A DNA stretch of 64,000 nt from a bacterium (GTDB taxonomy: Bacteria; Patescibacteriota; Dojkabacteria; JAKAPS01). The notes under the pieces are model-generated. The model saw only the letters and a list, made by a program, of their open reading frames with translations, did no database searches and was not told the DNA's origin. Location: positions 1,586 through 65,585 of the forward strand of contig JAKAPS010000004.1 of assembly GCA_021806925.1 (NCBI GenBank), given 5' to 3'. Positions 847 through 62,311 of this stretch are shown here, one piece after another (the stretch's first letter is position 1; each line of letters starts with the position of its first letter). A program made the translations under genes and the position numbers.

Positions 847-929
847 TATAAGTAGGGATTCAATCTAATCAACATGATTGAAGATTGAAGTATTGACATT
901 AACACACAAATAGTGTACATAGTAAAGAT

Positions 930-1571: not shown

Positions 1572-3834
1572 TCGTCTTAATAACGCTATAATCCTTAGTA
1601 TTTAATCCATATTGTATCAATAACTCAGTTAATGACCTGCTCATACCAAGGTTCTGATAAAATAATTTTCCAACTGTATAATCATTATTTACAACAAATA
1701 TGTTTTTACCCATTGTTAAGTAGCTAGTCTCCTTAGTTGTATCACTTGAATATAGTTGTGCTGCATATAGGTATATTTGAGGATCTGCATATTTATATCT
1801 TTTCAATATATCATTCATATCACCCTCTGCCTTGTTCGTCTGACCTTGGAAATACAATATCTGATTATTACTCAGCCTTATATACAAACTCTGACTATCT
1901 AATTTCATAGCACTGGCGTTATAGCTAACAAGCTGACTCATTGATAGCGGGGGAGTAGAATTTGTACCTTGACTTGAACTACTCAAACCTACTTGAACTA
2001 GGAAGTATGGGTAATATGCATCTATAGGATTAAATCTTATCAAACTCTCAATTGATTGAACCTGAGGAGCAATTGATGCTGTCTGTGATTGATTAACTAA
2101 ACTATTTAGTATTCCTTGGAACATTTGATATCCGACAAAGAAATATATTGATAAAATAAGGGATAGAAGGGAAATTACACTTACACTGTATGAAAAGACA
2201 TTTCCAGAATTATTAAAGAACCTGTCAATATTTAATATCCTTACTCCAATTGCTAATATAACAAAGAAGAGGAATGTCAACTCAATTACGTGCATTACTG
2301 GATAAAATAACATAAAGAGAATAAATACAAACAATACTAACCCAACCTCAAAGGATTGAGTTGATCTTGTATCCTTTGTAGTAAGCAAATTTAATGACAT
2401 TCTGAATGCCTTGTATATAAAGAATAGAAAGATTAGTCCACCAATAATACCAGTAGCACTAAACATCCATATAAACTCACTTCCAGTTGTTGTAAATACC
2501 TGCCATGGTGCTAATTCAAATGCCTGTGAAACACTCTTAAAGTTCCCAAGCCCTATACCTGTAAATATATATGATTTAAATACATTTAGAGCTTGAATAT
2601 AGTTGGATTCCATTAGAGCCATTGAAAAGTTCCTTTCATCCAGAAATATTGGGTTATATGCAACAGTAAAAGAGTGATTAGTTAGAATATATGAAAGTAT
2701 AATAGTAATAACTGCAAAACCAATCAAATATACTCTATTCTCAACCCATTTGAATCTATTTTCAACTACATCCTTCCAAAGTAGTAGTGACAACTCTATT
2801 CCAAATACAACATATGCAAATTTTGAATATGTTATATATATCCCAATAGATATTATTATGCTTGAAATTAAAAACACTAGTTTTCTCTTTCCCCTTATAC
2901 TGAATATAGATTGGAGAGAGAATGGGAATACAATTAAACCAAACAAAGCCTGAAATATATTAAGATTTAAAAATGGATACATTAAATAATTTGATGGAAT
3001 CAAATAATTTTTAGTTTTTAAGAAATTATATAAACTTAAAAACACTGTTTTCTGTGTAAAAACATTATTTGCAAATGATATCTGAAGATATGACAATATT
3101 ACATATATAAAGATGATGCCTGATACGACGCTAAGTGCATTGAAAAATGTCCTTCTTGATTTTCTCCCATGAAAAAAATCATATGAAAGAATAAAGAATA
3201 GACCATAACTAATTAATTCTATTGTGAAAAGAATTGAGTTATATTTATAAACTGAAAATATATCAGATACCAAAACAAAAAACATGAATGCAAAAAATAC
3301 ATATAAAAATGATTTTGATATATATAAATTTCCCCTTAAATTTCTCAAGAAGAAGAAACCGGAAGCTAATAATGCAACAGTAAATACCTTTGGTTCAGTT
3401 AGGCTGATTCCTCCAAAAAATGATAACGCAACTAGTGAAACAAAAAACAATGCAAAGTATATTTTCTCTATTGTAGTAAAAAAAACAAGAAATTTTCTTT
3501 TTGGCTTATCTTCATAACTTTGATATTCCTCTTTATCACTGACACTATCTTTTTTATCAATCTCAACTACTGTTATACTTTCTTCCTCAATAATGACAGG
3601 TTCTTGGATAATCAATTCCTCATTTTTTTTATCTGTATTATGTTTTGTGTTTTTCATATTCCCATGACCTTTTGTTTTATCACTAGCCAAAGCACTCTTT
3701 GTAGACTTCATTGTTTCCTTCTTTACTTTATCGCTTTGTATAGTACCCTTTGTATTCTCTTTTAAGATATTTTTGAGGTTATTCGTGCTTTTCTTTGATG
3801 TTTTTTTAGATTTATTTTCTTTCACTAAAGACAA
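1558..3834 (-). CDS. large polytopic membrane protein, O-antigen ligase/polymerase-like (Wzy_C-type). It has a Lys-rich disordered N-terminus and a C-terminal extracytoplasmic domain.
   Basis: 758 aa. About 130 K/E/T-rich N-terminal residues are followed by at least 10 predicted TM helices and a hydrophilic C-terminal roughly 200 aa. It lies in the glycan locus. Confidence 0.45.
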   Translation of the reverse strand: MSLVKENKSKKTSKKSTNNLKNILKENTKGTIQSDKVKKETMKSTKSALASDKTKGHGNMKNTKHNTDKKNEELIIQEPVIIEEESITVVEIDKKDSVSDKEEYQSYEDKPKRKFLVFFTTIEKIYFALFFVSLVALSFFGGISLTEPKVFTVALLASGFFFLRNLRGNLYISKSFLYVFFAFMFFVLVSDIFSVYKYNSILFTIELISYGLFFILSYDFFHGRKSRRTFFNALSVVSGIIFIYVILSYLQISFANNVFTQKTVFLSLYNFLKTKNYLIPSNYLMYPFLNLNIFQALFGLIVFPFSLQSIFSIRGKRKLVFLISSIIISIGIYITYSKFAYVVFGIELSLLLWKDVVENRFKWVENRVYLIGFAVITIILSYILTNHSFTVAYNPIFLDERNFSMALMESNYIQALNVFKSYIFTGIGLGNFKSVSQAFELAPWQVFTTTGSEFIWMFSATGIIGGLIFLFFIYKAFRMSLNLLTTKDTRSTQSFEVGLVLFVFILFMLFYPVMHVIELTFLFFVILAIGVRILNIDRFFNNSGNVFSYSVSVISLLSLILSIYFFVGYQMFQGILNSLVNQSQTASIAPQVQSIESLIRFNPIDAYYPYFLVQVGLSSSSQGTNSTPPLSMSQLVSYNASAMKLDSQSLYIRLSNNQILYFQGQTNKAEGDMNDILKRYKYADPQIYLYAAQLYSSDTTKETSYLTMGKNIFVVNNDYTVGKLFYQNLGMSRSLTELLIQYGLNTKDYSVIKTINSL

Positions 3835-3939
3835 TGATATATAAATATTATTAAGAATGCAACAGGATTCAAGAAATGTTAACTATCACAATATAAATTG
3901 TTGATATGGATACCGAGAAAAATGTATAAAAATAAACTT

Positions 3940-3964
3940 CCCACGACCTTACGGTCGGGGTTTT
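3940..3964. terminator. GC-rich hairpin (cccacgacc-ttac-ggtcgggg) followed by TTTT. It is a possible bidirectional intrinsic terminator between xerC and the 758-aa gene.
   Basis: The stem-loop was read directly. T-runs follow it on both strands. Confidence 0.35.
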
Positions 3965-4162
3965 AAGTTCGGAATTTATAAAATTAAGGCACATTTCTTT
4001 AATATGTATTACCTGTAAAATATTGTTTCAATATATATATTAAATACAAGAGATATCCTATACAACAAAATCGTATACACTCTTTACTGGACTATACGAT
4101 TTGTTGGATTATTGCATCGTACTTTTGAAACAAGTATATTATTTAAGTCTCGTTTATGTTTA

Positions 4163-5173
4163 TTACACTTCCTGCAATGGATGGAAGTGCTTATGAGCTT
4201 CATATGCAATCTTATCTGATGTGTGAAGGTATCTGTTTGTAGTTTGAAGCGATTCATGTCCTAACAGAATTTGAATAGCTCCAACATTTGCACCATTTTC
4301 TGCCAGGTAGGTTGCAAATCCATGCCTTAGAGAGTGAGCTGATGTAGGAACGATTATTCCAAGTAACCTTCTATATGTAGCAATTCTTTCTTGCAGGTAA
4401 TTAGGTGATATTCTTTCTGATAATCTGTGATTCCGTCCTCCTCTTGTGGAAAGAAATAGTGCCTTACGTGAATCATCTCCTCTTAATTTTAGGTATTCTA
4501 AAATATAGTGGGTTGCTCTTTCTGTAAGGTATACAAATCTTTGTTTTTTACCTTTACCCATTATATATATTTTACCAGTATCATCTATATTTTCTCTGTT
4601 TATACGTATTAATTCAGATATTCTCATGCCAGTTGAAAAAAGGACTTCAAGCATTGCTCTGTTTCTTGATGCAACATATGGATTCTTCTCAAATGTACTT
4701 GGGTATTCAATTAATTTTATTAGAGTATCAAGCTCTGCAACTTGTGCTTCCTTTCTCTCCATCTTAATCAACTTTATACTGCTTGATGATATAGGGCTTG
4801 AGAAATCAAAATCGGATAAGAATTTAAAATATGATCGTAATGCACTAAGCATTCTGTTTACACTTCTTGATGCAAGTTTTTCACCGTAATCCTTTTTTTT
4901 ATGCTCACAAAATTCCTTATATTCCTCAATATATTCAGTTTCATGAGCTTTAAAAAATTCGCTTATCTTACCCAAATACAATCCGTCCCTAAGAAATCCT
5001 TTATACATTGTTATTGTCAGTTTTGTTATACCATTAAATTCAATATGATTTAAAAGCAAATACATTTCAAAAACAAATAGATCTCTCCTATAATTGTATA
5101 TAGTTTCCCTTGAGTAATTTTGATTTAATAACTCTATCAAGAACTCTTCTTTTTTATCTAATACTGTATTCAT
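4163..5173 (-). CDS. xerC: tyrosine site-specific recombinase, XerC/XerD family
   Basis: The C-terminus carries the catalytic signature RHGFATYLAENGANVGAIQILLGHESLQTTNRYLH (R..HxxR...Y). The N-terminus is the SAM-like core-binding domain. Confidence 0.85.
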   Translation of the reverse strand: MNTVLDKKEEFLIELLNQNYSRETIYNYRRDLFVFEMYLLLNHIEFNGITKLTITMYKGFLRDGLYLGKISEFFKAHETEYIEEYKEFCEHKKKDYGEKLASRSVNRMLSALRSYFKFLSDFDFSSPISSSSIKLIKMERKEAQVAELDTLIKLIEYPSTFEKNPYVASRNRAMLEVLFSTGMRISELIRINRENIDDTGKIYIMGKGKKQRFVYLTERATHYILEYLKLRGDDSRKALFLSTRGGRNHRLSERISPNYLQERIATYRRLLGIIVPTSAHSLRHGFATYLAENGANVGAIQILLGHESLQTTNRYLHTSDKIAYEAHKHFHPLQEV

Positions 5174-23795: not shown

Positions 23796-24977
23796 ATGGT
23801 CAATGGATTAAATGAGGCATATGGCAATGAATCTATATATAAACTGATTAATTTAGCATTAAAATCTATTAGTATCTTGAATAAGTTTACGCCTGATGAA
23901 AATACTAAGATAGAAGAAGTAATTGATAAGTATAGCAGTATAAACAAACGAGAATTTCATATTCAATATACCGAAGAAGATGGTCATATTCTTAACATAT
24001 TAGTAGGAGATGACGGTTCATTTGAAGCATACTATACAAAAAAAGATTGTGAAGAGCAACAAATAATTGGAATAAACAGAGTAAATAATGATGATAAAAC
24101 CTACTTAATAAATTTGAATGGAAAACACTTCTTATTAAAAATCGAATATTCAGAAGATGGAACACCAATAATACATGATACAATATCAAAATCAGATGAC
24201 AAATATAGACAACTAATATACCAAGTATTACTTGACTGGAAATATGCTTCAGATAAAATAATTGAAACATTTGATATTGCACTATCAATTGAATCGGACT
24301 TTAATCATATCCAAAACGAATTAGAAATACTATGTAAAGACGTGCTATATAAAATAGAAGGGGATGATGATGATGATGACGATGATGAGAATGACGATGA
24401 TGATGATGATGGGAATGACGATGATGATGATGATGGGAATGACGAGGACGATGATGGGAATGACGAGGACGATGATGATGGGAATGACGAGGACGATGAT
24501 GATGGGAATGACGAAGATGATGATGGGGGGGATGACGAGGATGTAAATGAAGATGATGGACATGATAGTGGTGAGAATACATATGATGGGATTGCTGCAT
24601 CAGGAAATATAACCAGAATGAGGGGTATAATGTATGCATATATTAGAATGGTAGCCGTATTAATAGATAATACTCTAATTGGGCCTAATTTTATTGAATA
24701 TATAGATCGGTTCAAAGATAAGAATATTCGTGCATCTATAAATAAAATTGATAATAGGTATGATAGATTTGAAGTAGTGTTTAATGAACCTTTTTTTATT
24801 AAATTTAACGTTAATGTTAATAATGTAGCAGATATTAATATTGAAAATATAGAAATAAATGCAAATGTAAATAAGTACCTACTTAATTTACTTTTAAATA
24901 ATAACCGTGCAGTCTTCAATTTATTTAGAACAATTTCACATATGATTGAGATAATAAAGGAATATAACAATGAATGA
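23796..24977 (+). CDS. hypothetical protein with a long poly-Asp/Glu tract (about 75 aa of D/E/G/N repeats). It is the first of three tandem distant paralogs.
   Basis: The 393-aa ORF is continuous through the repeat. It shares the ESIxxL N-terminal helix and the L..LLDW motif with the next two genes. Confidence 0.55.
   Translation: MVNGLNEAYGNESIYKLINLALKSISILNKFTPDENTKIEEVIDKYSSINKREFHIQYTEEDGHILNILVGDDGSFEAYYTKKDCEEQQIIGINRVNNDDKTYLINLNGKHFLLKIEYSEDGTPIIHDTISKSDDKYRQLIYQVLLDWKYASDKIIETFDIALSIESDFNHIQNELEILCKDVLYKIEGDDDDDDDDENDDDDDDGNDDDDDDGNDEDDDGNDEDDDDGNDEDDDDGNDEDDDGGDDEDVNEDDGHDSGENTYDGIAASGNITRMRGIMYAYIRMVAVLIDNTLIGPNFIEYIDRFKDKNIRASINKIDNRYDRFEVVFNEPFFIKFNVNVNNVADINIENIEINANVNKYLLNLLLNNNRAVFNLFRTISHMIEIIKEYNNE
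24361..24550 (+). repeat. imperfect tandem coding minisatellite with units of about 24-27 bp (gggaatgacgaggacgatgatgat). It encodes a (D/E)n-G-N acidic tract.
   Basis: Read directly. The antisense frames yield His-rich and Ser-rich mirror ORFs. Confidence 0.8.
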
Positions 24978-31067: not shown

Positions 31068-31730
31068 TTGAATAAAGTTATAAATAATGATACTATTCAT
31101 ATCTATATGTCTTATGAAAATCACACACACGAACAATATGAACCTATTGGAGTACTAGCTATTTGTGTACATCCTTTTTTTCTTACTCCATTACGAAGTG
31201 ATAAAGTCTATCAAGAATTCCTTGAAAAAATAAGTAAATTTTACCCAACGAAACGAAATAATATTACGGTTATAACTCCTATGGAAAAAATACCTGGCGT
31301 CACAATACCTAATAATAATAATGAACGTTTCTCTTGGGAAGACCTTCAGGCAGAACTTATTGAGAATGCAGAAAAAGATAGATGTCTTCATTATGCATTC
31401 CCTAATACATTGATTATTAAAGATCTAATTGCACCTGGTTCTGATATAAACAACTTTAAAAGGATATTAAATGAAATGAAATTGATTATCACACCAGAAA
31501 CTCAAATCATCCTTGGTGGTGAATATACACAAGTTTGTGTATTAGGCGTTGCATTTCTTCTATTCAATGAGTTTATTCAAATCAATGAAATAAAAATACG
31601 CAGTGATGCATGTGTCCCTTATAAATCACGCTTTACTGGGGAAAACATGCCAATGGATCTACCTGAAAAATGTGGAATAGAATACTCAGAAGATGGTGAA
31701 TATATTCTACTACGTAGAAAAACTACATAA
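31068..31730 (+). CDS. hypothetical protein. A weak isochorismatase-like resemblance is seen in IILGGEYTQVCVLG.
   Basis: 220-aa ORF. The resemblance is weak. Confidence 0.3.
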   Translation: MNKVINNDTIHIYMSYENHTHEQYEPIGVLAICVHPFFLTPLRSDKVYQEFLEKISKFYPTKRNNITVITPMEKIPGVTIPNNNNERFSWEDLQAELIENAEKDRCLHYAFPNTLIIKDLIAPGSDINNFKRILNEMKLIITPETQIILGGEYTQVCVLGVAFLLFNEFIQINEIKIRSDACVPYKSRFTGENMPMDLPEKCGIEYSEDGEYILLRRKTT

Positions 31731-31744
31731 AGAGATTCTTTAAA

Positions 31745-32608
31745 TTATACAAAATGCTTTAGATAGCTAACCCATACGTCATGGTTATATTCTTTACCCA
31801 TCATACTATTACATATTGTATCAGTAATGTCACTAGGCACATTTCTGCTATTCCTTGTAGATAACATTAGTATTAAATTTAAAATTGTAGTTAGGGTTAC
31901 TAACCCTTCTATTATATTTCCTTTACATAAATCTTCATTTACTTTTATTAGGTTCGTTTTTAATATTTCATCATTATAGTTTTCTGTTGTATTGTTCCCT
32001 GATACTAAATTACCAACAAATTTCATAATACAACTTACAAAACCATCATTATCATCTGATATATTAACAAATGGAAAATAATTTATTAACAATTGATATA
32101 TATTTCTTTCTAGATTACTCTGATCAAATTTATTGATCGATATAGTATCTTCTGATTCTTTTAATACATCACTACTTACATATCCGAATTTATGTGCCAG
32201 ATATATTAAAAGTAAATCATTATCTTCTGCTCTCTCTAAATTAATTCCTTTATCACATTTAATTTCATATACTACAGCCCTAGATATATCCTTTTCTATT
32301 TCACTATCGATCACTACTCTACCTGACGTTCTTAGAATTAAGCTTAAACAATTTGATAGAATAACATATTTATGAATTTGATCAATATGATCATTATTCC
32401 ATATATCGTTCGATAATAAATGAGTTAATAATGGACTCCTATCTTCAACAACTCCATGTAAAACCTTAATTAAACTACCAATGTTGCCTGAATCTGAATT
32501 AGAGTATTCTTGTCCAATTAGATTATATTTCTCTAATAGATTATGTAAGGAGAAAGATTCTGCATTATTACATTCATAAGACATTCTACACATAAATTGT
32601 AGACACAA
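31745..32608 (-). CDS. hypothetical protein
   Basis: 287-aa ORF with no motif. Confidence 0.35.
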   Translation of the reverse strand: MCLQFMCRMSYECNNAESFSLHNLLEKYNLIGQEYSNSDSGNIGSLIKVLHGVVEDRSPLLTHLLSNDIWNNDHIDQIHKYVILSNCLSLILRTSGRVVIDSEIEKDISRAVVYEIKCDKGINLERAEDNDLLLIYLAHKFGYVSSDVLKESEDTISINKFDQSNLERNIYQLLINYFPFVNISDDNDGFVSCIMKFVGNLVSGNNTTENYNDEILKTNLIKVNEDLCKGNIIEGLVTLTTILNLILMLSTRNSRNVPSDITDTICNSMMGKEYNHDVWVSYLKHFV

Positions 32609-32718
32609 ATAACACTATTTTGCAACATATACAAAAAAAGACTGATATACTAATTCACTTTGAGTTTCCTTTCTAAATAAACCAAAGCTTTAAAGTATAT
32701 CAGCCTATTAACAAAAAT

Positions 32719-32752
32719 AAGGAACAAATAAATTGTTCCTTATTTAAGTATT
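32719..32752. terminator. hairpin aaataaggaacaa-ataaa-ttgttccttattt downstream of surface-protein paralog 1
   Basis: 13-bp stem with a T-run following on the minus strand. An identical copy lies at 37817-37852. Confidence 0.55.
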
Positions 32753-32760
32753 AATCAAAT

Positions 32761-33762
32761 TTACTTTACATTAAATACTACTCCAAGTTCTGGACCACAG
32801 TATCCATTTGCACAATCATGATTTGTTGATAAATAATATCCGTAACTATTTGCATCTACTTGATACTCTCCAGTTGAATTAAATGTAAATTCACTTACTA
32901 TTTGGAATGTGTTACCAGCAGAATATTTAGGATTATTCTTAGTTGCAATATATTGTATTGTACGTTGATATGGCGCAAAGTAGTTATATTCACCACTTGG
33001 AACTTTACTATTTAATTCATATGGAGTTTGACTTCCATTGGAGTTTATTTCATCTGCACTTATTCCTATATATTCATCTGGTATGTTTCTAACATGATTT
33101 ACTGTGTAGTCAGCTTTAACATCTAATACTGTTCCTGCAGGTATACTTATAGTATTCCCTTTTACACATATTATACTAGCTACTGGGTAACCTTGGTTAT
33201 AAACAGCATCAAAAACCATCTTTACACTGTAGTAATAATAATTATTAGATACTGTATAGGTTGAAGGACACTGTAATCCTGTTGGTGTTGGTGTCGGTGT
33301 TGCTACTGTAGGACTTACTGTTGGCGTTGATGTCGGTGTTCCTGTAGGACTTACTGTTGGTGTTGGCGTCGGTGTTGCTACTGTAGGACTTACTGTTGGT
33401 GTTGGCGTACTAGAAGTAGTACAAACTTCTTCTCGGTTTATTAATTGGCAGGAATTATTTGTTTTTGTTGGTGCAGTATTTCCTGTACTAGTTCCACCAC
33501 TTGTATTTGCACTTGAAAATACACTTCTGTCTCCACCGGAAACTCCGCTTGATATATTATTATATTGGGTTAAATGGTTTCTACCGTAATTACCCCCCAT
33601 AGAGAATATTCCTCTACTCTCTACGTTATTAATATAATTTCTGTTTAGAATCAAGAATGCAAAAACTGACAAAAGAGAAACAAAAGCAATTGATAATATC
33701 AATCCTTTCTTTAAACCTCCCTTTTCTTCAGTATCAATCTTTTTTATATTTATTGAACCCAT
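32761..33762 (-). CDS. membrane-anchored surface protein, paralog 1. It has an N-terminal signal anchor, a PT-rich mucin-like linker and a conserved roughly 130-aa C-terminal domain with a CxxxxC pair.
   Basis: The likely true start is the ATG (MGSINIKK) 6 nt after a consensus -10. The TTG start used by the track lies inside the -35. Its N- and C-termini are near-identical to 37863-38828. Confidence 0.6.
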   Translation of the reverse strand: MGSINIKKIDTEEKGGLKKGLILSIAFVSLLSVFAFLILNRNYINNVESRGIFSMGGNYGRNHLTQYNNISSGVSGGDRSVFSSANTSGGTSTGNTAPTKTNNSCQLINREEVCTTSSTPTPTVSPTVATPTPTPTVSPTGTPTSTPTVSPTVATPTPTPTGLQCPSTYTVSNNYYYYSVKMVFDAVYNQGYPVASIICVKGNTISIPAGTVLDVKADYTVNHVRNIPDEYIGISADEINSNGSQTPYELNSKVPSGEYNYFAPYQRTIQYIATKNNPKYSAGNTFQIVSEFTFNSTGEYQVDANSYGYYLSTNHDCANGYCGPELGVVFNVK

Positions 33763-33798
33763 AACTATATTATAGCACCCATAGTATAATAATGTCAA
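33763..33798 (-). promoter_or_regulatory. consensus sigma70-type promoter (TTGACA, 18 bp, TATAAT, 6 nt, ATG). The mRNA is leaderless or near-leaderless.
   Basis: Read directly on the minus strand. An identical copy sits upstream of paralog 2. Confidence 0.55.
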
Positions 33799-33806
33799 GG
33801 AGCTGA

Positions 33807-34745
33807 TTACTGCTTAAGCCTTTGTATAAATTCATTAGGAATATCAAGGGAAAATGAGTATTCCTTTCCTCTATATATAAATGTCAGACTTTTTGCAAGT
33901 AGATACATTCGTTTTTCATTTTTGGTCCCAGAATAGAGCTTATCACCTAATATAGGAGTCCCTAAGTATTTGAGATGAAGTCTAATTTGATGTGTTCTAC
34001 CAGTTTTCGGAGCTATTTTGAAAAGAATCATGTTATTCTTTATCTCGATTGGTGATATATATGATAGAGAATACTTAGATACTCTAAGTTTATTAGTAGA
34101 AAACATCATTTTTCTATACTCCCTTGGATTATGGGCTACATATCCCTCCACTTTAAATTCATTTTTATCACCATTTATATCTACAAATTTCCTTTCTATT
34201 GATAGCGATGAAGGTATTCCTATTGCAAGGTATTCCTTATACACCTCTCGTTTTGCAAACAACTCCATCAGCTCTCTTTGAGATTCATAGTTTTTAGCAA
34301 TTAAAAGTAACCCACTTGTATCTTTATCTATTCTATGAACAATATATGGTCTAGTTGTTACTGATTTTGGGAAAGACACGTCATTTAATCCGTATTTATA
34401 TACAAGCCAGTTAAGAACTGTATTTGCTCTTTCATTTTTAGATGTATGAACACTTACTCCTACTGGTTTATCTATGACCAGAAAATCATCATTTTCAAAA
34501 ATAATAGGAATATCCATATTTGCAGGTTCAATTGTTTTAAAACTGTTTTTAATTGATTCATTCTGTTGTAGAACAGCATCCAAAGTATTCTCTTGTATAT
34601 AGACTATATCACTGCTTCTTGTCATTTTTGAAGGGTTAGTAACAAATGTATTATTTAATTCAACCTTCCCATCACGGATAAGATGGAGTATTTGAGTTCT
34701 GGAAATTTGCGGATATTTTAAACTTGCGAGTTTATCGAATCTCAT
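33807..34745 (-). CDS. RluA-family pseudouridine synthase with an N-terminal S4-like domain
   Basis: HRIDKDTSGLLLIAKN catalytic-Asp motif. Confidence 0.85.
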   Translation of the reverse strand: MRFDKLASLKYPQISRTQILHLIRDGKVELNNTFVTNPSKMTRSSDIVYIQENTLDAVLQQNESIKNSFKTIEPANMDIPIIFENDDFLVIDKPVGVSVHTSKNERANTVLNWLVYKYGLNDVSFPKSVTTRPYIVHRIDKDTSGLLLIAKNYESQRELMELFAKREVYKEYLAIGIPSSLSIERKFVDINGDKNEFKVEGYVAHNPREYRKMMFSTNKLRVSKYSLSYISPIEIKNNMILFKIAPKTGRTHQIRLHLKYLGTPILGDKLYSGTKNEKRMYLLAKSLTFIYRGKEYSFSLDIPNEFIQRLKQ

Positions 34746-35106
34746 TTTCGATTATCTTCTCGCATTCGATGCAATAAATTATACTTGGATCTGCTTCAAG
34801 ACGCTCTTTACCTATGTCTTTACCACATTTTCTACACTTCCCGTATTTCTTTGTTTTTATCAATTTTAAAGAATACCTTATATTCTTCAGGTATCTTTTT
34901 AGGATTGACTCACTTTCAATATTTTCAAGTCTTTTCTGTTCACCATCCTGGCTAGCAGCAGGGTCAATATCCTCAAGATATTTATCTGTATCCTTGAGAT
35001 TTATTTCATTTTCAATCCTTTCAATACTATCTTCAAGAACTTCCTCTTCATTCTTAAGCTTCTTCTTATTTCTCTTAATTAAATCACTAAATTTTATCAT
35101 AATCAC
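34732..35106 (-). CDS. DksA/TraR-family C4 zinc-finger protein
   Basis: C-terminal CRKCGKDI...CIECE four-Cys finger after an acidic coiled-coil region. Confidence 0.55.
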   Translation of the reverse strand: MIMIKFSDLIKRNKKKLKNEEEVLEDSIERIENEINLKDTDKYLEDIDPAASQDGEQKRLENIESESILKRYLKNIRYSLKLIKTKKYGKCRKCGKDIGKERLEADPSIIYCIECEKIIENEIR

Positions 35107-35122
35107 TCTATTGTATATTTTA

Positions 35123-35800
35123 CTACTTTTTTATTTCAAATGTAAAAGCAGATAATTTTCCTACCCTTCTTCCAAATAGATCAAAAAGAGCTGGAAAGTG
35201 TATAAGATCATTCCTATACATAAAGTATGTAATACACGACATATAAACAACAGCCGTTGATGCGTAATATATTGTATTCAAACTATATATATTTGATATT
35301 AATATAGTTGAGTTATACAGAATGTTTACTAGAAAATATATGAATAAGGAATAGTAAAACCATTTTATGTTTTTGTAAAGAACGACTAGTGATATATATA
35401 TCACACCATAGAATAACAGGAAGTGCCATTCTGTAAGCACAAATTTAGAAATATTTATATGTGAGACAAGATACATACATGTAATAGAGAAGAAAATATT
35501 TAATAGTATGTACGTTCTTAATATCTCAAGTACAAATACAGGTGTGAATTTAACATAACTTAATTTAAACACAAGAATTGCAGTTGGTATAAGCAATAGA
35601 ACTGTCAAAGGGAAAAAAATATCAGGTGAATATATGAAAGGGATTGCTGGTATTATTGATATGAATATTATCCTAAAGAATATATCAAAACTATCGATTT
35701 TATCATAATTGTATTTAAAGCATTTTACATAAAGACTAAATGATGAAAATATTAATGAGAATATAAAGAAACCAAAATCTACTAATATATTATCTATCAT
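35123..35800 (-). CDS. polytopic membrane protein, hypothetical
   Basis: 225 aa with about 7 TM helices. Confidence 0.4.
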   Translation of the reverse strand: MIDNILVDFGFFIFSLIFSSFSLYVKCFKYNYDKIDSFDIFFRIIFISIIPAIPFIYSPDIFFPLTVLLLIPTAILVFKLSYVKFTPVFVLEILRTYILLNIFFSITCMYLVSHINISKFVLTEWHFLLFYGVIYISLVVLYKNIKWFYYSLFIYFLVNILYNSTILISNIYSLNTIYYASTAVVYMSCITYFMYRNDLIHFPALFDLFGRRVGKLSAFTFEIKK

Positions 35801-35831
35801 TTATTTTCTTAACATGATAGCCTTAAATAAA

Positions 35832-37073
35832 TCAGCTTGTCAAAATAGTTTCAAATATATCATTAGAAGCGATACTTTTAAAATATTCTTTAATTTTTAC
35901 ACTCTTAATTTTACTAATTGTGGAAATTATATCAACGTAATTATTTACTTTATCTTCATAATAGTAGTCATAGCAATATAGCTTATTCATCACACCTGGA
36001 TTATTTATCTCTTTTTTATATATTGATTTTAGGTACTTAACTCCCCTATTGATATCTATGCCTTCCCCATTAGATATCTTCTCTAGTGAATTCCTTATTT
36101 CAGCTATAACTTTTTTAACATTTCTTTTGGTAACTGAAGAATATATATAGCAGATTGAAAAATCATGAAAATAAAATACTTCATAATCAATTGAGTAAAC
36201 CATACCAGAATTTTCCCTTAGAGTTTGCCATAGGTATGAACTTGTTCCACCTAATAATATACTCATACCTGCTTCAAGTAAAAGTGATTCATTTGATCCA
36301 TATCGTGGACCTATAAATCCAACCGACAGAAATGTTTCTGATTTGCTCTTTTTTACTACCTTTTTGTATAGTGTTTTATTTGTACTATGACCTATATCCG
36401 TATACTTCGGAAGTGCTCTTTTACGCTGCACATTGTTTATATTATGCACATCTTTAACATTGTTAAATACTTGTCTGTATATTGAAGTATATGACGCCTT
36501 TGATGTTATTGAAATAATCAGATTCTCAGGAACACATATTTTCTTTATAAATCTTCTAACTTGCCCAATGGTTATATTATCTTCGTTCCCTATGATATCC
36601 CTTGATATTTCTGGATAGTTATACAATATTTGCCCATACACTAAGTCAGATAGTTCTTTTTCTGAATCATATCCATTACTAATTCTTTCCTCATGAATGA
36701 CCTTCTTTTCACTTTCAAAATCTTTCTTACTAAATTTGTTTCTAAAAATTAAATCTAGAACTATATCTATCAATTCACATATCTTTTTTGAATTAATCTC
36801 TGCTGTTATTTCAATAAATTCTGCTGAGGTATAGGCATTTAACTCACCCTCATTTTCATCAAGAAATTTACTTATTGAAAATTGAGAATAATTTACACTT
36901 CCCTTTAGAATTATATGTTCAACAAAATGAGACAACCCTATGATTTTATCATCCTTTGCACCATGCCTAATTACAATATGTAAGTATGAAGTATCATTAT
37001 TACTTTGGTGATAATTTAATTTGCTATATTTATTTACTAATAGAGTCCCATTTTTTATATCAAATACTTTCAT
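35832..37073 (-). CDS. M16-family (pitrilysin/insulinase-like) zinc peptidase
   Basis: Inverted zinc motif HFVEHIILKGS (HxxEH). Confidence 0.75.
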   Translation of the reverse strand: MKVFDIKNGTLLVNKYSKLNYHQSNNDTSYLHIVIRHGAKDDKIIGLSHFVEHIILKGSVNYSQFSISKFLDENEGELNAYTSAEFIEITAEINSKKICELIDIVLDLIFRNKFSKKDFESEKKVIHEERISNGYDSEKELSDLVYGQILYNYPEISRDIIGNEDNITIGQVRRFIKKICVPENLIISITSKASYTSIYRQVFNNVKDVHNINNVQRKRALPKYTDIGHSTNKTLYKKVVKKSKSETFLSVGFIGPRYGSNESLLLEAGMSILLGGTSSYLWQTLRENSGMVYSIDYEVFYFHDFSICYIYSSVTKRNVKKVIAEIRNSLEKISNGEGIDINRGVKYLKSIYKKEINNPGVMNKLYCYDYYYEDKVNNYVDIISTISKIKSVKIKEYFKSIASNDIFETILTS

Positions 37074-37621
37074 TTTGACTCTCTGCCAACATATTCCCCA
37101 TTTTCTGTATTTACACGTACAACTTCACCCTGTTTTACAAAAAGCGGAACTTGAATAATAAGGCCAGTTTCTAACTCTGCGGGTTTTGTAGGATTACTTG
37201 ATGAATTTCCTTTAACCCCCTCTTCAGTATCTTTTACAGTAAGTTCAACAATCTTAGGAATATCAACGCTTACAAGTTTTCCATCAATACTCATTCCAAT
37301 TACTTTTTCACCGTTCTTCAGGTATTTTATATCATCCCCTATATCAACAGAAACCTGTTCAAATGACTCAATATCCATAAAATACCCAATTGAGTCTTCT
37401 GAATATATAAACTGATAATTAGATTTACTCACATCTGCATCATCAAATTTATCATTATTACTGAAGCTTTTATCAACAATTGACAATGTTTTCAAGTTTT
37501 TTACACGTACCTTTATTACGGCCCCTCCCCTACCCATAGCTATATGATCATACTTTAAGACAATAAATGTATCCTTGTCCATCTTAAATACTGCACCTGG
37601 TTTTAAATCTGTTGCTAACAT
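37070..37621 (-). CDS. efp: elongation factor P
   Basis: The N-terminus LKPGAVFKMDKDTFIVLKYDHIAMGRGGAVIKVRVKNLKT is characteristic, including the KOW and conserved-loop region. Confidence 0.9.
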   Translation of the reverse strand: MLATDLKPGAVFKMDKDTFIVLKYDHIAMGRGGAVIKVRVKNLKTLSIVDKSFSNNDKFDDADVSKSNYQFIYSEDSIGYFMDIESFEQVSVDIGDDIKYLKNGEKVIGMSIDGKLVSVDIPKIVELTVKDTEEGVKGNSSSNPTKPAELETGLIIQVPLFVKQGEVVRVNTENGEYVGRESK

Positions 37622-37816
37622 AACTTTTTGGATTATATATTAAAAGAAGGAAGAATGGAAGAAACAAAACACAAGTATATATAGATGAATAATAAAGATA
37701 AGAGAAAACAAATGCTGTATGCAGTATGTAACAAAAAAGACTGACATACTAATTCCCTTTGAGTTTCCTTTCTAAATAAACCAAAGCTTTAAAGTATATC
37801 AGTCTATTAACAGAAA

Positions 37817-37852
37817 TAAGGAACAATATATATCTTGTTCCTTATTTGAGTA
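37817..37852. terminator. hairpin identical to 32719-32752, downstream of surface-protein paralog 2
   Basis: Same inverted repeat, aaataaggaacaa...ttgttccttattt. Confidence 0.55.
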
Positions 37853-37862
37853 TTAATCTTAT

Positions 37863-38828
37863 TTACTGTACATTAAATACTATTCCAAGTTCTGGACCAC
37901 AGTATCCATTTGCACAATCATTATTTGTTGACAAATAATATCCATAACTATTTGCATCTATTTGATATTCGCCAGTTGAACCAAATATAAATTCGCTTGC
38001 TATCTGGAATGTGTTACCAGCAGAATATTTAGGATTATTCTTTGTTGCAATATATTGTATTGTACGTTGGTATGGTGCAAAATTTCTATATTCACTACCA
38101 GGTACCTTACTATTTAATTCGTATGGTGTCTGACTTCCATTTAGATTTATTTCATCTGCACTTATTCCTATATATTCATCAGATATATTTCTTGTATGAT
38201 TTATTGTGTAATATGCTTCAACATCAACAGTTGATCCTACTGGAATACTTATTTTAGTTCCATTAACACATATTCCATTTTTATCAGTTAATATTAATTT
38301 TACTGAATAGAAATAATTATTATCTGCATTAGTCATAATGTATGTTTCACTGCATTGTATAGCATTACTTGTTTTTTTACTTTGTATTTTATTAATTAGA
38401 TTTGAAAGATTATTACCAGCGTTACTGAAAATTTTATTTATATTTTGTGTGCCTTGTCCTTGTGACATTTTTACTGGTGTAGGATTACAATCTAATAATC
38501 TAACCAATACTATTGGAAGTGGGCATTTATTATTTGTAACAAAATTATTATTTAATGTTGTTTGTTGTTTCTTAGTAGAATTATCAGATGGTTTATAGTC
38601 AGTCCTTGAATTATATGTAACAACAGATGATATACCATTCGAGTTCCTACTATAATTACCACCCATAGAGAATACTCCCCTACTCTCTACATTGGATATA
38701 TAGTTTCTGTTTAATACTAGGAACGTAAATACTGATAAAAGAGAAACAAAAGCAATTGATAATATCAATCCTTTCTTTAAACCTCTCTTTTCTTCAGTAT
38801 CAATTTTTTTTATATCTATTGAACTCAT
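37863..38828 (-). CDS. membrane-anchored surface protein, paralog 2. It has the same N-terminal anchor and C-terminal domain as paralog 1 but a different stalk (N/S/T/K-rich, no PT repeat).
   Basis: Direct protein comparison with 32761-33762. The ATG is MSSIDIKK after an identical promoter. Confidence 0.6.
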   Translation of the reverse strand: MSSIDIKKIDTEEKRGLKKGLILSIAFVSLLSVFTFLVLNRNYISNVESRGVFSMGGNYSRNSNGISSVVTYNSRTDYKPSDNSTKKQQTTLNNNFVTNNKCPLPIVLVRLLDCNPTPVKMSQGQGTQNINKIFSNAGNNLSNLINKIQSKKTSNAIQCSETYIMTNADNNYFYSVKLILTDKNGICVNGTKISIPVGSTVDVEAYYTINHTRNISDEYIGISADEINLNGSQTPYELNSKVPGSEYRNFAPYQRTIQYIATKNNPKYSAGNTFQIASEFIFGSTGEYQIDANSYGYYLSTNNDCANGYCGPELGIVFNVQ

Positions 38829-38864
38829 AACTATATTATAGCACCTATAATATAATAATGTCAA
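38829..38864 (-). promoter_or_regulatory. consensus sigma70-type promoter, a duplicate copy (TTGACA, 18 bp, TATAAT, 6 nt, ATG)
   Basis: Sequence identical to 33763-33798 except for one spacer base. Confidence 0.55.
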
Positions 38865-38968
38865 GGAGCTGATTACTGCTTAAGCCTTTGTATAAATTCA
38901 TTGGGAATATCCCAGAATACTTACTGCAGTAGATATTGACAAATATATATATATAGTAACATTATGGT

Positions 38969-39136
38969 ATGAACGAAAATCAATATGAACCCTGTGAATC
39001 TGAAGATAGAAAAACTATTAGTAAAGTATCTAGTGCATGTTCTAATGCTGGTATGAACGAAAATCAATATGAACCCTGTGAATCTGAAGATAGAAAAACT
39101 ATTAGTAAAGTATTTAGTGCATGTTCTGATAAATGT
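38969..39136 (+). repeat. two near-identical 84-bp tandem copies, in frame
   Basis: Copy 1 spans 38969-39052 and copy 2 spans 39053-39136. They differ only in the last roughly 10 bp. Confidence 0.85.
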
Positions 39137-39385
39137 AAAAAAATTATTAGTGAACATCCAAAAACTAGTTTTGTGCTAAGTGGTCTCGCGTTAGGTACAC
39201 TGTATGTGCTTTCAACACATTTTCCATCTGTAATTGTTGCAAATCTTATATCTACTGGATTTTTCTTTAGAGCTTTTTTTGATCCAAGAGATTGGAGGAA
39301 AATAAATAAAAAAAAGATAAATATTTATACTATATTTCACTTTGTTCTAATTTTATTTATCCTTAAGTTTGTTCACCTCCATTGA
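38969..39385 (+). CDS. small membrane protein whose N-terminal 28 aa is tandemly duplicated
   Basis: MNENQYEPCESEDRKTISKV(S/F)SACS occurs twice, then a TM segment. The DNA carries an 84-bp direct tandem repeat. Confidence 0.45.
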   Translation: MNENQYEPCESEDRKTISKVSSACSNAGMNENQYEPCESEDRKTISKVFSACSDKCKKIISEHPKTSFVLSGLALGTLYVLSTHFPSVIVANLISTGFFFRAFFDPRDWRKINKKKINIYTIFHFVLILFILKFVHLH

Positions 39386-49332: not shown

Positions 49333-50142
49333 TTACACTACTGCGAAGAAGTCATCAATATCTAAAGAAATTGAGCAAGCTACTTTACGCCTATCATCCT
49401 CTTCCAAAGGAAAGTATACCATATTATCCCCTATGTAACATCCTTCATTTTTTTTGTTCAAAATGTATTTCCACCATTTATATTCATTCTCATTATTCTT
49501 TATACCATCGCTTTGAAATTTTCCAATAAGGACACTTGGCAAATCTTTAATATGAACTAATTCTGGATCCATTGACAAGCAAACCAGTGTAGAGAATTTT
49601 GCATTAAATATGTCTTTATAGTCATCATATCCAAGATAAGTGACAGGCAAAACATCTGAATTTAATATATAGTACATGTTAGTTCTTACAACAGGAGCAA
49701 TATAGTTGGTTACAAATGCCATCATGTGGCAATTCAAGTATAAGTTATCCCCTACTATCCTAACATTTCCACCTACTGGAGAATATATACTCTCTTTCTG
49801 AGGAATAGTATTAAGTACTAATTTAGACCCATCAACAGCAACTGATGCATCTATAGGGCTTTTAATAATTAATTCGACAGGTAATATACTTCTGTGAGCA
49901 AGGATACTCCCCTTTCTTACTATATCTCCGTTTTTAACATCAAGATATTTCCCTATATTATTAGAATTCAATTTTAGTTCATCTTTCAAGTCAATAGTAA
50001 CCTCTCTATATGATATATCCCTAAGTACAAGTAAATCCCCTGCCGATACTTTTGTTCCATTCTTAACCTTTATATCATCAATATTCCTTACATCAATAGG
50101 AAATTCATATTCTAAAATTTTAGGAATCTTAAATTTTCTCAT
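49333..50142 (-). CDS. hypothetical protein
   Basis: 269-aa ORF. It overlaps the upstream gene by 14 bp, forming an operon pair. Confidence 0.35.
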   Translation of the reverse strand: MRKFKIPKILEYEFPIDVRNIDDIKVKNGTKVSAGDLLVLRDISYREVTIDLKDELKLNSNNIGKYLDVKNGDIVRKGSILAHRSILPVELIIKSPIDASVAVDGSKLVLNTIPQKESIYSPVGGNVRIVGDNLYLNCHMMAFVTNYIAPVVRTNMYYILNSDVLPVTYLGYDDYKDIFNAKFSTLVCLSMDPELVHIKDLPSVLIGKFQSDGIKNNENEYKWWKYILNKKNEGCYIGDNMVYFPLEEDDRRKVACSISLDIDDFFAVV

Positions 50143-59276: not shown

Positions 59277-59314
59277 TTCCTAGTATATTATACAACAATT
59301 TATATACAAACATT

Positions 59315-59390
59315 AATTTATTTAAGAATATAGCAACTTCTGTTATTTTTCATATCAATTACCTCAAATCCTTTTTCGATTGATAACTTA
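59315..59390. repeat. 76-bp exact copy of the cysS 3' end plus 15 bp of its downstream flank. It is the left direct repeat bracketing the ATPase cassette.
   Basis: Identical to 60836-60911. A further 13-bp match (ttaaagagtaatc) follows after a short indel. Confidence 0.85.
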
Positions 59391-59534: not shown

Positions 59535-60712
59535 ATGTATATACACCGCTTTGTAGAAAAATCATTAGAAAACCTTTTAAGGGATCCAAAATTTTTATTC
59601 TCCTTGGGGCACGTCAAGTAGGGAAAACCACCCTTATTGAACCCTTAGTTCGAAAGAGAATTGGATTATTACTCAACTGCGATATTGATATTGATAAATC
59701 AAGATTGTTAGCTTCTAGTTCGCTACACCCCTTTGAAGCTATGAAATTTTTTGGTAATCCAAAACTTCTAGTCATTGATGAAGCACAAAACTTACCAGAA
59801 ATTGGAAGAATTGTAAAAGGTTGGTATGATGCTCGTGTTACTACAAAGATAATACTACTTGGGTCATCAAGCCTTAATTTATTAGACCTTACTGCAGAAC
59901 CTCTTACTGGAAGAAATGAAAAAATCTATTTAACACCACTGTTGTTTAGTGAAATTCTCAAGAATCAATCATGGCTTACTCCAGAAGTAACAAAATCGAT
60001 TCTTGAAGAACAATTTAAAGATCAAATTCAAACCTTGCTTTTACAACAAATGGTATATGGTAGCTATCCGGAAGCAATTACAACAGTTGATAAAGAGAGG
60101 TATCTACTAAATTTGACATCCGATTATTTACTCAAAGACGTCTTACAAAACGGACTGGTAAAATCTCCTGAGCCAGTAAAAAAACTTTTATCTATGATTG
60201 CATATCAAGCAGGAAATGAAGTATCTATTAATGAACTTGCTATGAATTTACACACCTCTAGACAAACAATAGAGCGATATATAGAACTACTTGAAAGGTC
60301 GTATGTAATTTTTAAAGTACATGCATTTAGTACAAACCAACGAAAGGAAATTGTTAAAAACTCAAAAATATTCTTTTGGGATACAGGTGTACGTAATGCA
60401 CTTCTTAAAGAATTTTCTCTTTCACCGTTCAGGTCTGATATAGGTTCACTGTTTGAAAACTGGGTTGTTTCAGAAGTAGCCAAACTTAATTTAATAAAAG
60501 GAGATAAAAATAATATTTACTTCTGGCGCAAAAGAGATGGCAGTGAAGTGGACTTAATTGTAAAAGGAACAAATACATTCAAGGCATATGAAATGAAGTG
60601 GTCAAAACTAAACATAACACAATCAGCAAAAAGTTTTTCTAATACCTACAATATACCAGTTAAAGTTATCACAAAAGATACAATACTGGACTTGTTGTGG
60701 GAAGAAAAATAG
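59535..60712 (+). pseudogene. AAA+ ATPase of the DUF4143 type (Walker A GARQVGKTTL), disrupted by a frameshift in an A5T5 homopolymer (ccAAAAATTTTTatt) at about 59588-59597
   Basis: The ATG at 59535 encodes MYIHRFVEKSLENLLRDPKFLF and then stops. The rest (ILLGARQVGKTTLIEPL...) is in the -1 frame with no in-frame ATG. The track ORF 59705-60712 is the 3' part, starting at TTG. Confidence 0.6.
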
Positions 60713-60835
60713 AGCTCCTAGATATATTTACAGATATAAGAAAAATTATTCAGTAATATAACAGATGGCTTATTTTCCTTTTTGTATATACAGTTGTGAT
60801 ACTATTCCATAACGCATATTTAATATTTATACAAA

Positions 60836-60911
60836 TATACAAACATTAATTTATTTAAGAATATAGCAACTTCTGTTATTTTTCATATCAATTACCTCAA
60901 ATCCTTTTTCT
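60836..60911. repeat. right direct repeat, the native 3' end of cysS
   Basis: Identical to 59315-59390. Confidence 0.85.
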
Positions 60912-62311
60912 TCTAAATCCTGTTTTAATTTATCACTTAAAGAGTAATCCCCGATATTTTTCGCTTCACTCCTTCTATTAATCAGTTCGTTATACTCCTC
61001 ATCCTTACTATTTGATGCTTCAACCATTAAATTAAAATCAAAACCCAATACACTTCCTATTGCATATATATTAGATATCTTTTCTTTAGATGCCATATCA
61101 TTCCTTTTTAAAATGTCATGAATTAATGCAATAGCTTTTGATGTATTAATATCATCTTCCAGGCACTCTTTTAATTTAACTAAATATTCATTTGAAAACA
61201 TATCATACACTGGAGATACACTGCCGTGAGTACTTGTACTCCGTAATGGAGTGGCAGAATCATCCTCTGCAAATAATCTTATCTGCCTTATTATTCCATA
61301 TATAGCTCTGTACGCATTAAGAATTGCTTCTTTAGAGAAATCTATCATGCTCCTATAATTTCCTGATAGAAATAGATATCGTAAAGCTTCAGGAGCATAT
61401 TTTGTGTTAGCTTTTAATTCAGAATTTAATATACTTTCAACATCATCAAGTGTATAGAAATTGTTTTTGCTTTTACTCATCTTTTCACCATTTATTGTTA
61501 TAAAAGCATTATGCAACCAATAATGTACAACTTGTTTTCCTGCTATTGAATCTGATTGAGCTATTTCATTTGTATGATGAGGAAATATCAAATCACTTCC
61601 GCCAGTATGAATGTCAAATTCATCTCCTAAGTATTTCATACTCATTGCACTACATTCAATATGCCAACCAGGATAACCTTTTCCCCATGGAGAATCCCAC
61701 AGCATTTGGTGTGTCGGATCATCAAGCTGCCATAATCTGAAATCCTTTTGCGACTTCTTTTCTACAGATTCATTTAGATTATCCCTTGAATTATCCATAA
61801 GTTCATCTGTTTTCTGTCCAGATAGGTTATAGTAAAGAGGAAATTTAGTTACATCAAAATATATTGCCTCATCTGTCCTATATGCATATCCTTTTTCTAA
61901 AAGTATCTCGATTAATTTTATCTGCTCTTGAATATGATCGGTAGCTTTAGCTAAAACACTTGGTGGTAATATATTTAATCTATCCCTATCTTTTAAAAAT
62001 ACATCAGTATATTTTTTTGCAATTGCCCATACATCTAAATTATCAATTTTTGCTTGTTTTTCCAGTTTATCTTCTCCCTTATCTATATCCCCTACAATAT
62101 GACCTACATCCGTTATATTCATTACATTGAATACATCATATCCTAGAAATCTGAAACTTCTAACCAAAATATCAGCAAAAATGAATGCACGCCAATTGCC
62201 TATTGTAGGGTTTGAATATACAGTTGGTCCACAGCTATATATCTTAACCATTCCTTTAACAATTGGTTTAAATTCTTCTAGCTGTTTTGATAATGTGTTG
62301 TATAATTTCAT
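60851..62311 (-). CDS. cysS: cysteinyl-tRNA synthetase whose HIGH motif reads TIGN
   Basis: CGPTVY...TIGNWRA in place of HIGHAR. KMSKS is present as GEKMSKSKNN. The zinc ligand WHIECS is present. Confidence 0.85.
   Translation of the reverse strand: MKLYNTLSKQLEEFKPIVKGMVKIYSCGPTVYSNPTIGNWRAFIFADILVRSFRFLGYDVFNVMNITDVGHIVGDIDKGEDKLEKQAKIDNLDVWAIAKKYTDVFLKDRDRLNILPPSVLAKATDHIQEQIKLIEILLEKGYAYRTDEAIYFDVTKFPLYYNLSGQKTDELMDNSRDNLNESVEKKSQKDFRLWQLDDPTHQMLWDSPWGKGYPGWHIECSAMSMKYLGDEFDIHTGGSDLIFPHHTNEIAQSDSIAGKQVVHYWLHNAFITINGEKMSKSKNNFYTLDDVESILNSELKANTKYAPEALRYLFLSGNYRSMIDFSKEAILNAYRAIYGIIRQIRLFAEDDSATPLRSTSTHGSVSPVYDMFSNEYLVKLKECLEDDINTSKAIALIHDILKRNDMASKEKISNIYAIGSVLGFDFNLMVEASNSKDEEYNELINRRSEAKNIGDYSLSDKLKQDLEEKGFEVIDMKNNRSCYILK

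Follow-up and report, generated by a model that had tools for sequence, protein, structure and literature searches.

Evidence that a transcription unit for an orphan putative membrane protein was copied from the rluA locus of a Dojkabacteria genome and later remodelled by recombination

We analyzed 64,000 nucleotides of bacterial DNA (GTDB lineage Bacteria; Patescibacteriota; Dojkabacteria; JAKAPS01), namely positions 1,586 to 65,585 of the forward strand of contig JAKAPS010000004.1 from assembly GCA_021806925.1. This whole stretch, hereafter "the window", carries two diverged copies of a gene for a putative membrane-anchored protein. Copy 1 overlaps the 3' end of rluA, which codes for a pseudouridine synthase, and copy 2 is located next to efp. 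Each copy represents a complete minus-strand transcription unit composed of a promoter, an open reading frame (ORF) and two tandem terminator hairpins. According to our overall reading, to which we assign a probability of about three in four, this unit was copied from the copy-1 locus and both copies subsequently became mosaics through recombination.

As determined by global alignment, repeat finding and blastn, copy 2 (37720-38911) is a diverged direct repeat of copy 1 (32621-33845), the two lying 5.1 kb apart in direct orientation. Alignment of region 32560-33900 with region 37650-38960 revealed two collinear blocks of high identity, which flank an unalignable center. On the left, 32621-32727 pairs with 37720-37826 at 92% identity and 32723-33022 pairs with 37825-38124 at 89%; blastn extends this block to positions 33172/38274, with 86% identity overall. 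On the right, 33577-33845 and 38643-38911 align without gaps at 90% identity (E about 1e-101). Thus, the shared ends, 555 nt and 269 nt long, are 86-96% identical, and they comprise the promoter, the 3' untranslated region (UTR) and a remnant of rluA. In between, ~400 nt (about 33173-33576 in copy 1, 38275-38642 in copy 2) could not be aligned. The similarity of the copies is far above chance and indicates an intragenomic segmental duplication. An earlier reading of copy 2, made from the sequence only, had proposed just this, i.e. conserved ends enclosing a non-homologous stalk, and alignment, repeat finding and shuffle tests bear it out. It had placed copy 2 at 37722-38905: the position was right, and the ends have to be moved 2 nt to the left and 6 nt to the right. 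Insertion between efp (37070..37621, minus strand) and an ORF for a small membrane protein of 138 amino acids (aa; 38969..39385, plus strand) is in agreement with the ORF list and with Pfam annotation of the neighboring genes. The duplicated segment starts 47 nt upstream of the -35 box and ends just beyond the terminators, with homology ceasing about 10 nt past the terminator U-run. Repeat finding reported neither terminal inverted repeats nor target-site duplications at the ends of the unit, no mobile-element genes are present among the neighboring genes called on independently assembled contigs (see below), and inspection of the flanking sequence gave no evident microhomology at the junctions. 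By tblastn and blastn, neither a third paralogue nor a donor for either stalk could be detected elsewhere in the window; a weak match at 49927-50130 (E = 0.017) falls within an unrelated ORF of 269 aa.

The direction of copying can be read from the sequence preceding the copy-2 promoter. Positions 38865-38911 differ from 33799-33845 by 1 mismatch in 47. While 38865-38872 constitutes the shared 8-nt spacer ahead of the -35 box, 38873-38911 corresponds to the last 12 codons plus stop codon of rluA (DIPNEFIQRLKQ followed by the stop; 33807-33845), with 1 mismatch in 39. The earlier description of a 41-bp duplicate of the rluA end at 38865-38905 was correct as to the match, and the homology reaches 6 nt further than stated. 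As also described previously, copy 2 lacks an rluA gene and has efp and the small membrane-protein ORF as neighbors (ORF list, Pfam). The duplicated codons encode D-I-P-N-E-F-I-Q-R-L-K-Q and include the C-terminal motif [IVL]-P-x-x-[FL], which is aligned in 13 of 13 RluA-family sequences (all 12 homologues among them) and additionally in a syntenic outgroup, whose RluA reads DVPEYF (ending ...DVPEYFDEY...) in place of DIPNEF. Because this conserved motif lies within them, the 12 codons are native to rluA at the copy-1 locus, in copy 2 they represent a remnant, and therefore the copy-1 locus is the source, as the sequence-only reading had concluded from the fragment. The fragment is real, but it is not really stray, as had been said, since it forms the -36 to -82 promoter flank that was carried along with the transcription unit. 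With silent sites nearby diverged by about 7%, a single mismatch within the 39 nt of the remnant is unremarkable, and no function needs to be invoked to explain its preservation, even though it is positioned where upstream elements of promoters lie.

Copying might also have proceeded in reverse, in which case the unit would first have resided beside efp and, upon being copied into the 3' end of rluA, would have supplied the last 12 codons of this gene. With two copies only and no one-copy relative, the direction hangs on a single argument, and copy 1 is found within a lineage-specific insert between rluA and yebC, which the outgroup lacks. Yet random non-coding DNA is unlikely to yield an RluA motif in register, and the 12 codons align with [IVL]-P-x-x-[FL] of every RluA homologue examined as well as with DVPEYF of the outgroup. 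We consider the reverse direction very unlikely and retain the copy-1 locus as source.

The outgroup is the only syntenic relative found (L046; positions 1-4236 were compared). It is distant, with a GC content of 25% and an RluA that is 40% identical. The best non-self matches in general were likewise remote, i.e. 41% for EF-P (in a Patescibacteria metagenome-assembled genome), 40% for RluA and 58% for RuvB. In L046, genes for an M16 peptidase and a DksA/TraR zinc finger protein are followed by rluA, an 87-aa ORF, yebC and ruvCAB; its sequence begins at the M16 peptidase gene, and the efp side is beyond its end. In the window, two genes of 282 and 207 aa (31107-32593) without known relatives reside beside copy 1 between rluA and yebC. 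As L046 possesses neither the family nor these two genes, copy 1 sits in a lineage-specific insert. Also extra in comparison to L046 is a multi-pass membrane protein of 225 aa (35123-35800) located between the M16 peptidase and DksA/TraR genes, which has no known relatives either.

Assembly error had been named with the sequence-only reading as the circumstance that would overturn it. As an independent check we used the Logan assembly of run SRR13206618, in which contigs L043 (37786..33807), L045 (32687..24485) and L044 (39084..50074) are all 100% identical to the window. These contigs cross three of the four junctions (32621, 33845 and 37720) with copy-specific variants: their overhangs measure 66-67 nt where copy 2 is entered from the efp side and copy 1 from the side of the 282-aa gene, and 39 nt where copy 1 is entered from rluA, and within these overhangs 7, 7 and 1 positions, respectively, distinguish the copy from its counterpart. 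The contig breaks lie within the repeat, at the points where the copies start to share exact k-mers, and a genuine repeat of two copies should produce this pattern. No contig reaches across the fourth junction, 38911/38912, since the unique sequence before an 84-bp tandem repeat (38965-39130) is too short for a complete gene. If the arrangement were an artefact, copy 2 would be a strain variant of copy 1 or a chimeric join that was misplaced beside efp during metagenome assembly. The contig is metagenome-derived, the Logan data may go back to the same reads as the original assembly, and one junction lacks an independent contig. However, copy 2 does not run into rluA past 39 nt, as it would if it were a strain variant of copy 1; homology ends abruptly, and the junctions share no k-mer able to cause a false join. 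Moreover, ORF, promoter and terminators are intact in both copies despite about 10% divergence and unrelated centers. Together with the three junctions matched at 100%, this makes an artefact unlikely, and we grant it a minimal chance. As to the 84-bp repeat, it is an in-frame duplication (1.9 copies, 98% identical) 54 nt from the right junction of copy 2, which begins 4 nt ahead of the small membrane-protein gene and takes in its start codon and first 28 codons, so that the N-terminus MNENQYEPCESEDRKTISKV.SACS... is present twice.

Both units are headed by the only perfect TTGACA-N18-TATAAT matches in the 64 kb, where 0.22 would be expected, and these were also top-ranked by the promoter scan. 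In both copies, 6 nt separate the end of the -10 box from the ATG, and a Shine-Dalgarno motif is lacking. At the usual distance from the -10 box, transcription would start right at the A of the start codon, and the mRNAs of both copies are therefore probably leaderless. In the whole window, Shine-Dalgarno-like motifs precede 6 of the 55 long ORFs, and in 18 of 55 a -10-like box is present 3-11 nt upstream of the first ATG, which suggests that leaderless mRNAs or mRNAs with very short leaders are widespread. TGA serves as stop codon, indicating the standard bacterial code. In the 3' UTR, the RNA of both copies can form two conserved tandem hairpins, the second of which has an outer stem of 13 bp followed by U7 (copy 1) or U6 (copy 2). 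Rfam covariance models applied at gathering threshold detected two tRNAs only in the window and none in the unit. We dropped a reading of the 3' hairpin as an integron attC-like site: no R''/R' core was visible by eye, the neighboring genes include no integrase, and the unit has its own promoter.

The two proteins share the same order of parts, i.e. a charged N-terminal tail, a hydrophobic helix, a conserved juxtamembrane stretch, a low-complexity stalk and a head of ~165 residues. In copy 2, the tail contains 6 K+R and 4 D+E, and the Kyte-Doolittle maximum (2.7, 19-residue window) is reached at residue 21. In both proteins, the helix (aa 21-39) shows neither a lipobox nor a prepilin motif, and a cleavage site is not obvious. 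A type IV pilin or class III signal peptide was rejected, as the sequence reads KKG-LILSI lacking Glu at +5 and no N-methyl model of NCBIfam or Pfam matched at E <= 1. The stalk of copy 1 is T/S/P-rich and contains a Pro-Thr (PT) repeat array; in copy 2, Tandem Repeats Finder (TRF) found no tandem repeat, confirming the earlier statement that the PT repeat is missing there. Residual similarity between the stalks is not significant, since ~90 of 1000 shuffles at the protein level and ~91 of 300 at the DNA level score as well, and no frame-shifted homology was found in any frame. A TNNxC-x8/11-C loop followed by PTP is kept in both stalks, which hints at common descent. Six Cys residues are conserved in number and order (105/114/165/199/317/322 in copy 1, 102/114/159/187/305/310 in copy 2). 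This pattern and the PT linker argue for an extracytoplasmic C-terminal part, i.e. a type II signal-anchor topology. The protein would accordingly be a single-pass, N-in/C-out membrane protein that carries a disulfide-containing, beta-rich head on a stalk. An AlphaFold2 model of the head, built from an alignment of two sequences, is all-beta with a pLDDT (predicted local distance difference test) score of 48.9; a Foldseek search of the PDB with this low-confidence model returned generic beta-sandwiches only (best E = 0.016, TM-score 0.35). Where the two copies can be aligned, the ratio of non-synonymous to synonymous substitution rates (dN/dS) amounts to 0.12-0.26, which argues that both are real, functional protein-coding genes. 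Both are probably expressed and under purifying selection.

Relatives of the two paralogues could not be found. A word-indexed search of 5.8 billion protein clusters returned only the two window proteins, and an exhaustive HMMER search with a profile of the head against 1.84 billion representatives yielded no true relative beyond them. An Fn3-repeat protein (P0003) matched with E = 1.2e-11, but this value results from adding up 7 repeats that are nearly identical; taken singly, the best domain scores 13.9 bits (E about 5e3), and the match was discarded. No Pfam match was obtained even at E <= 10, the search of NCBIfam gave no true relative, and the best match in a sequence search of the PDB had E = 0.74. 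Two scans of metagenome contigs of the Joint Genome Institute, a scan of viral contigs and tblastn against phage records were likewise without a relative. No contigs were retrieved when copy 2, the small membrane protein and the product of the 280/287-aa gene were looked up by exact protein sequence. For copy 1 only, weak matches were obtained to phrog_15511 (E = 1.2e-5, unknown function) and TIGR04526 (E = 0.008), the latter a "putative immunoglobulin-blocking virulence protein" model and far below its cut-off; both span the PT region and were attributed to composition. They cover aa 83-300, and copy 2 has none. The family thus has two members in all collections searched and no detectable homologue there; by this sequence-based measure it is new.

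Next to its ends and its center, the duplication contains a second tier of divergence, which is evident at silent sites. Within the right block, differences amount to 3/83 in the 5' flank and 6/99 nt in codons 1-33, and rise to 19/87 nt in codons 34-62. A maximum chi-square test places a breakpoint near 33670 (7/175 mismatches on one side vs 21/94 on the other; permutation p = 0.0005). Third positions differ in 2 of 31 cases in codons 1-31 and in 12 of 31 in codons 32-62; over the last 128 codons, the counts from inside to outside are 9, 12, 5 and 2 of 32. Synonymously different codons total 4/56 in the termini compared to 23/76 in the shoulders (Fisher p = 0.001). In the block beside the stalk the synonymous rate (dS) is saturated at about 1.5, with dN/dS at 0.26. 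Taken together, termini and flanks are about 4-7% diverged including silent sites, while the inner shoulders are about 30-38% diverged at silent sites. Such unevenness argues that ends and interior differ in age and that the copies are recombination mosaics rather than simply diverged duplicates. Recombination is needed here because selection at the protein level cannot produce differences of this kind at silent sites.

Plain divergence without recombination would instead have purifying selection hold the ends, while relaxed or diversifying selection and slippage let stalk and inner head evolve fast. Constraint could plausibly act on promoter, terminator hairpins and anchor, low-complexity linkers evolve rapidly by indels and repeat expansion, the PT array being itself a tandem repeat, and the mismatches, 55 transitions and 26 transversions, form an ordinary spectrum. 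Selection on the protein nevertheless leaves the four- to five-fold synonymous contrast unexplained, and the same holds for the sharp breakpoint. In addition, the rluA remnant, which lacks a function, is preserved as well as the adjacent silent sites, and a shoulder dN/dS below 1 combined with saturated dS points to greater age and not to positive selection. Plain divergence is unlikely in our view.

Conserved ends round a hypervariable center of a predicted surface protein also resemble expression-site/donor-cassette systems, and programmed variation might be at work, be it at the target of a diversity-generating retroelement (DGR) or as cassette-type antigenic variation with one copy donating sequence. 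DGRs are reportedly common in small-genome uncultivated bacteria. However, the mismatched bases are not adenine-specific (A25/T22/G18/C16 in copy 1, A29/T22/G16/C14 in copy 2), their spectrum being symmetric with a bias toward transitions, and no reverse transcriptase (RVT) is encoded among the genes on the Logan contigs covering 24.5-32.7, 33.8-37.8 and 39.1-50.1 kb. Both copies are complete and have perfect promoters, unlike silent truncated cassettes, and the family numbers two members in the public collection. Programmed variation is thus highly improbable. A related, rather doubtful proposal is that the locus acts as a surface-variation module: recurrent gene conversion would keep the near-identical ends alike, these ends would act as recombination anchors, and copies or strains would trade segments of stalk and inner head. 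The mosaic pattern is the one positive point in its favor. If true, the module would tune reach or specificity of a head that would contact host or environment in a deep-branching, uncultivated bacterium with a small genome.

Several points weigh against copying from the rluA locus followed by mosaic recombination. L046 lacks the family altogether and has only the 87-aa ORF between rluA and yebC, and as no close relative was found, neither a one-copy state nor the ancestral intergenic region between efp and the membrane-protein gene has been observed. Junction 38911/38912 has no independent support, L044 starting at 39084 inside the 84-bp tandem repeat. The silent heterogeneity rests on small counts, and the inner-vs-outer contrast at the C-terminus taken alone has p = 0.085; at the 5' end, part of the effect could come from silent sites being under selection close to a leaderless start. 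Finally, topology, expression, leaderless initiation and surface location of the protein are deduced from sequence, and the structure model of the head is of low confidence.

In the scenario we favor, the copied segment would have taken along the last 12 codons and stop codon of rluA because the upstream flank of the promoter overlaps the 3' end of this gene. Two routes are conceivable. The unit may have arisen by tandem duplication of 32621-37719 and subsequent loss of the redundant second rluA-to-efp block, or it may have been transferred by direct ectopic copy-and-paste. Both routes give the same final A-R-S-R-B structure. For the mosaic, an older duplicate could have undergone gene conversion at its conserved ends only, with conversion blocked by the diverged center; alternatively, the interior of a young duplicate could have been replaced by a divergent allele. 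Expansion of the PT array would have added to the difference between the stalks. Functionally, the same anchor and distal head may be displayed on stalks of differing chemistry and length.

Features of the duplicated unit and its surroundings. Positions refer to the window.
Feature	Positions	Strand	Description and evidence
Copy 1 of the unit	32621..33845	-	overlaps rluA 3' end; junctions 32621 and 33845 crossed by Logan contigs L045 and L043
Copy 2 of the unit	37720..38911	-	alignment and repeat families; junction 37720 crossed by Logan contig L043
Spacer between copies, unique	33846..37719	-	rest of rluA, DksA/TraR zinc-finger gene, 225-aa membrane protein, M16 peptidase, efp and upstream region
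rluA	33807..34745	-	RluA/RluD-family pseudouridine synthase; PF00849 (1.7e-28) and S4 domain; homologue alignment; last 39 nt within duplicated block
rluA 3' remnant	38873..38911	-	-44 to -82 upstream of copy-2 promoter; minus strand reads IPNEFIQRLKQ and stop; spacer 38865-38872 is -36 to -43
Copy-1 promoter	33769..33798	-	TTGACA-N18-TGnTATAAT, 12/12 consensus; ATG at 33762
Copy-2 promoter	38835..38864	-	TTGACA, 18-nt spacer, TG-extended TATAAT, 12/12 consensus; ATG at 38828
Copy-1 coding sequence	32761..33762	-	333 aa (P0002), PT-repeat stalk; ORF list
Copy-2 coding sequence	37863..38828	-	321 aa (P0001); ORF list; identical protein in public collection
Copy-2 charged N-terminal tail (aa 1-20) and predicted single transmembrane helix (about aa 21-39)	38712..38828	-	Kyte-Doolittle
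Copy-2 stalk, aa 61-157	38358..38648	-	N/S/T/K-rich, no PT array; Cys pair TNNKC-x11-C then PTP; composition, shuffle test, TRF
PT-repeat array, copy-1 stalk	33279..33405	-	39-nt period, 3.3 units; TRF score 212, 87% matches; repeat family D3
Copy-2 C-terminal head, aa 158-321	37866..38357	-	predicted beta-rich, 4 conserved Cys; alignment with copy 1, 76% identity
Copy-1 tandem terminator hairpins and U7	32632..32745	-	fold -44.2 kcal/mol, z = -7.0; first hairpin called terminator by scan
Copy-2 3' UTR, two tandem hairpins, second with U6	37732..37847	-	fold -42.5 kcal/mol, z = -6.0

Further repeats are present in the window. A direct repeat of 76 nt occurs at 59302-59377 and, 1.5 kb away and 100% identical, at 60835-60910. 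The latter copy comprises the last 19 codons and the stop codon of cysS (60851..62311, minus strand) plus 16 nt downstream; the former is a second stray gene-3' fragment in the window and translates to EKGFEVIDMKNNRSCYILK followed by a stop. Between them resides an N-terminally truncated ORF for an AAA_14/DUF4143 ATPase (59705..60712, plus strand). Judged from its sequence, the region adjacent to cysS has the appearance of an insertion that happened very recently, with long direct repeats on either side. At 24334-24591, a low-complexity coding array rich in GAT/GAC/GGG (runs of Asp and Gly codons) contains many overlapping direct repeats, and contig L045 ends inside it at 24485.

The event as such is a standard bacterial gene duplication with later recombination and does not overturn current understanding; new are the protein family and the two-tier divergence. 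The locus provides a clean, datable example of the copying of a gene unit in bacteria, in which a 39-nt rluA remnant gives the direction and the bounds coincide with promoter flank and terminator. It further illustrates that ends and interiors of paralogues only 5 kb apart can have different histories, which bears on the dating of duplicates and on inferring selection. An orphan protein encoded behind the two best promoters of the window, in a lineage without a close genome, also appears a reasonable candidate for an abundant envelope component.

Four known systems offer themselves for comparison: remodelling of duplications, concerted evolution of tuf genes, the variable surface proteins Vlp/Vsp of Mycoplasma and PT linkers. 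The direct A-R-S-R-B arrangement, the truncated rluA (the first gene of S) beside the second R and the retention of a complete unit are as in remodelled tandem duplications of the innovation-amplification-divergence type. Unlike in these, neither a tandem intermediate nor a one-copy relative was seen here, no junction microhomology is evident, and copy-and-paste gives the same end state. With gene conversion between tufA and tufB the units share segments of much lower silent divergence with a supported breakpoint. However, tuf genes are homogenized as a whole, whereas in the present case this concerns termini and flanks only and the center is unalignable; moreover, conversion is here deduced from two sequences, and a foreign allele that replaced the interior would explain them just as well. 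The pair is reminiscent of the Mycoplasma Vlp/Vsp proteins in its near-identical 5' non-coding region (3/83 differences) and membrane-targeting N-terminus (6/99) combined with a presumably exposed, low-complexity or repetitive region that differs between paralogues. In contrast to them, our proteins lack a lipobox, i.e. are not lipoproteins, and have a conserved C-terminal head in addition; there is no phase-variable promoter tract, no invertase and no sequence similarity, and the members are two. Copy 2 departs from the PT linkers of cellulases in having an N/S/K-rich segment instead, and no catalytic or carbohydrate-binding domain is detectable; the PT array of copy 1, in turn, resembles these linkers in that roughly 40-45 residues (127 nt), built by tandem duplication, are placed between an anchor and a globular domain.

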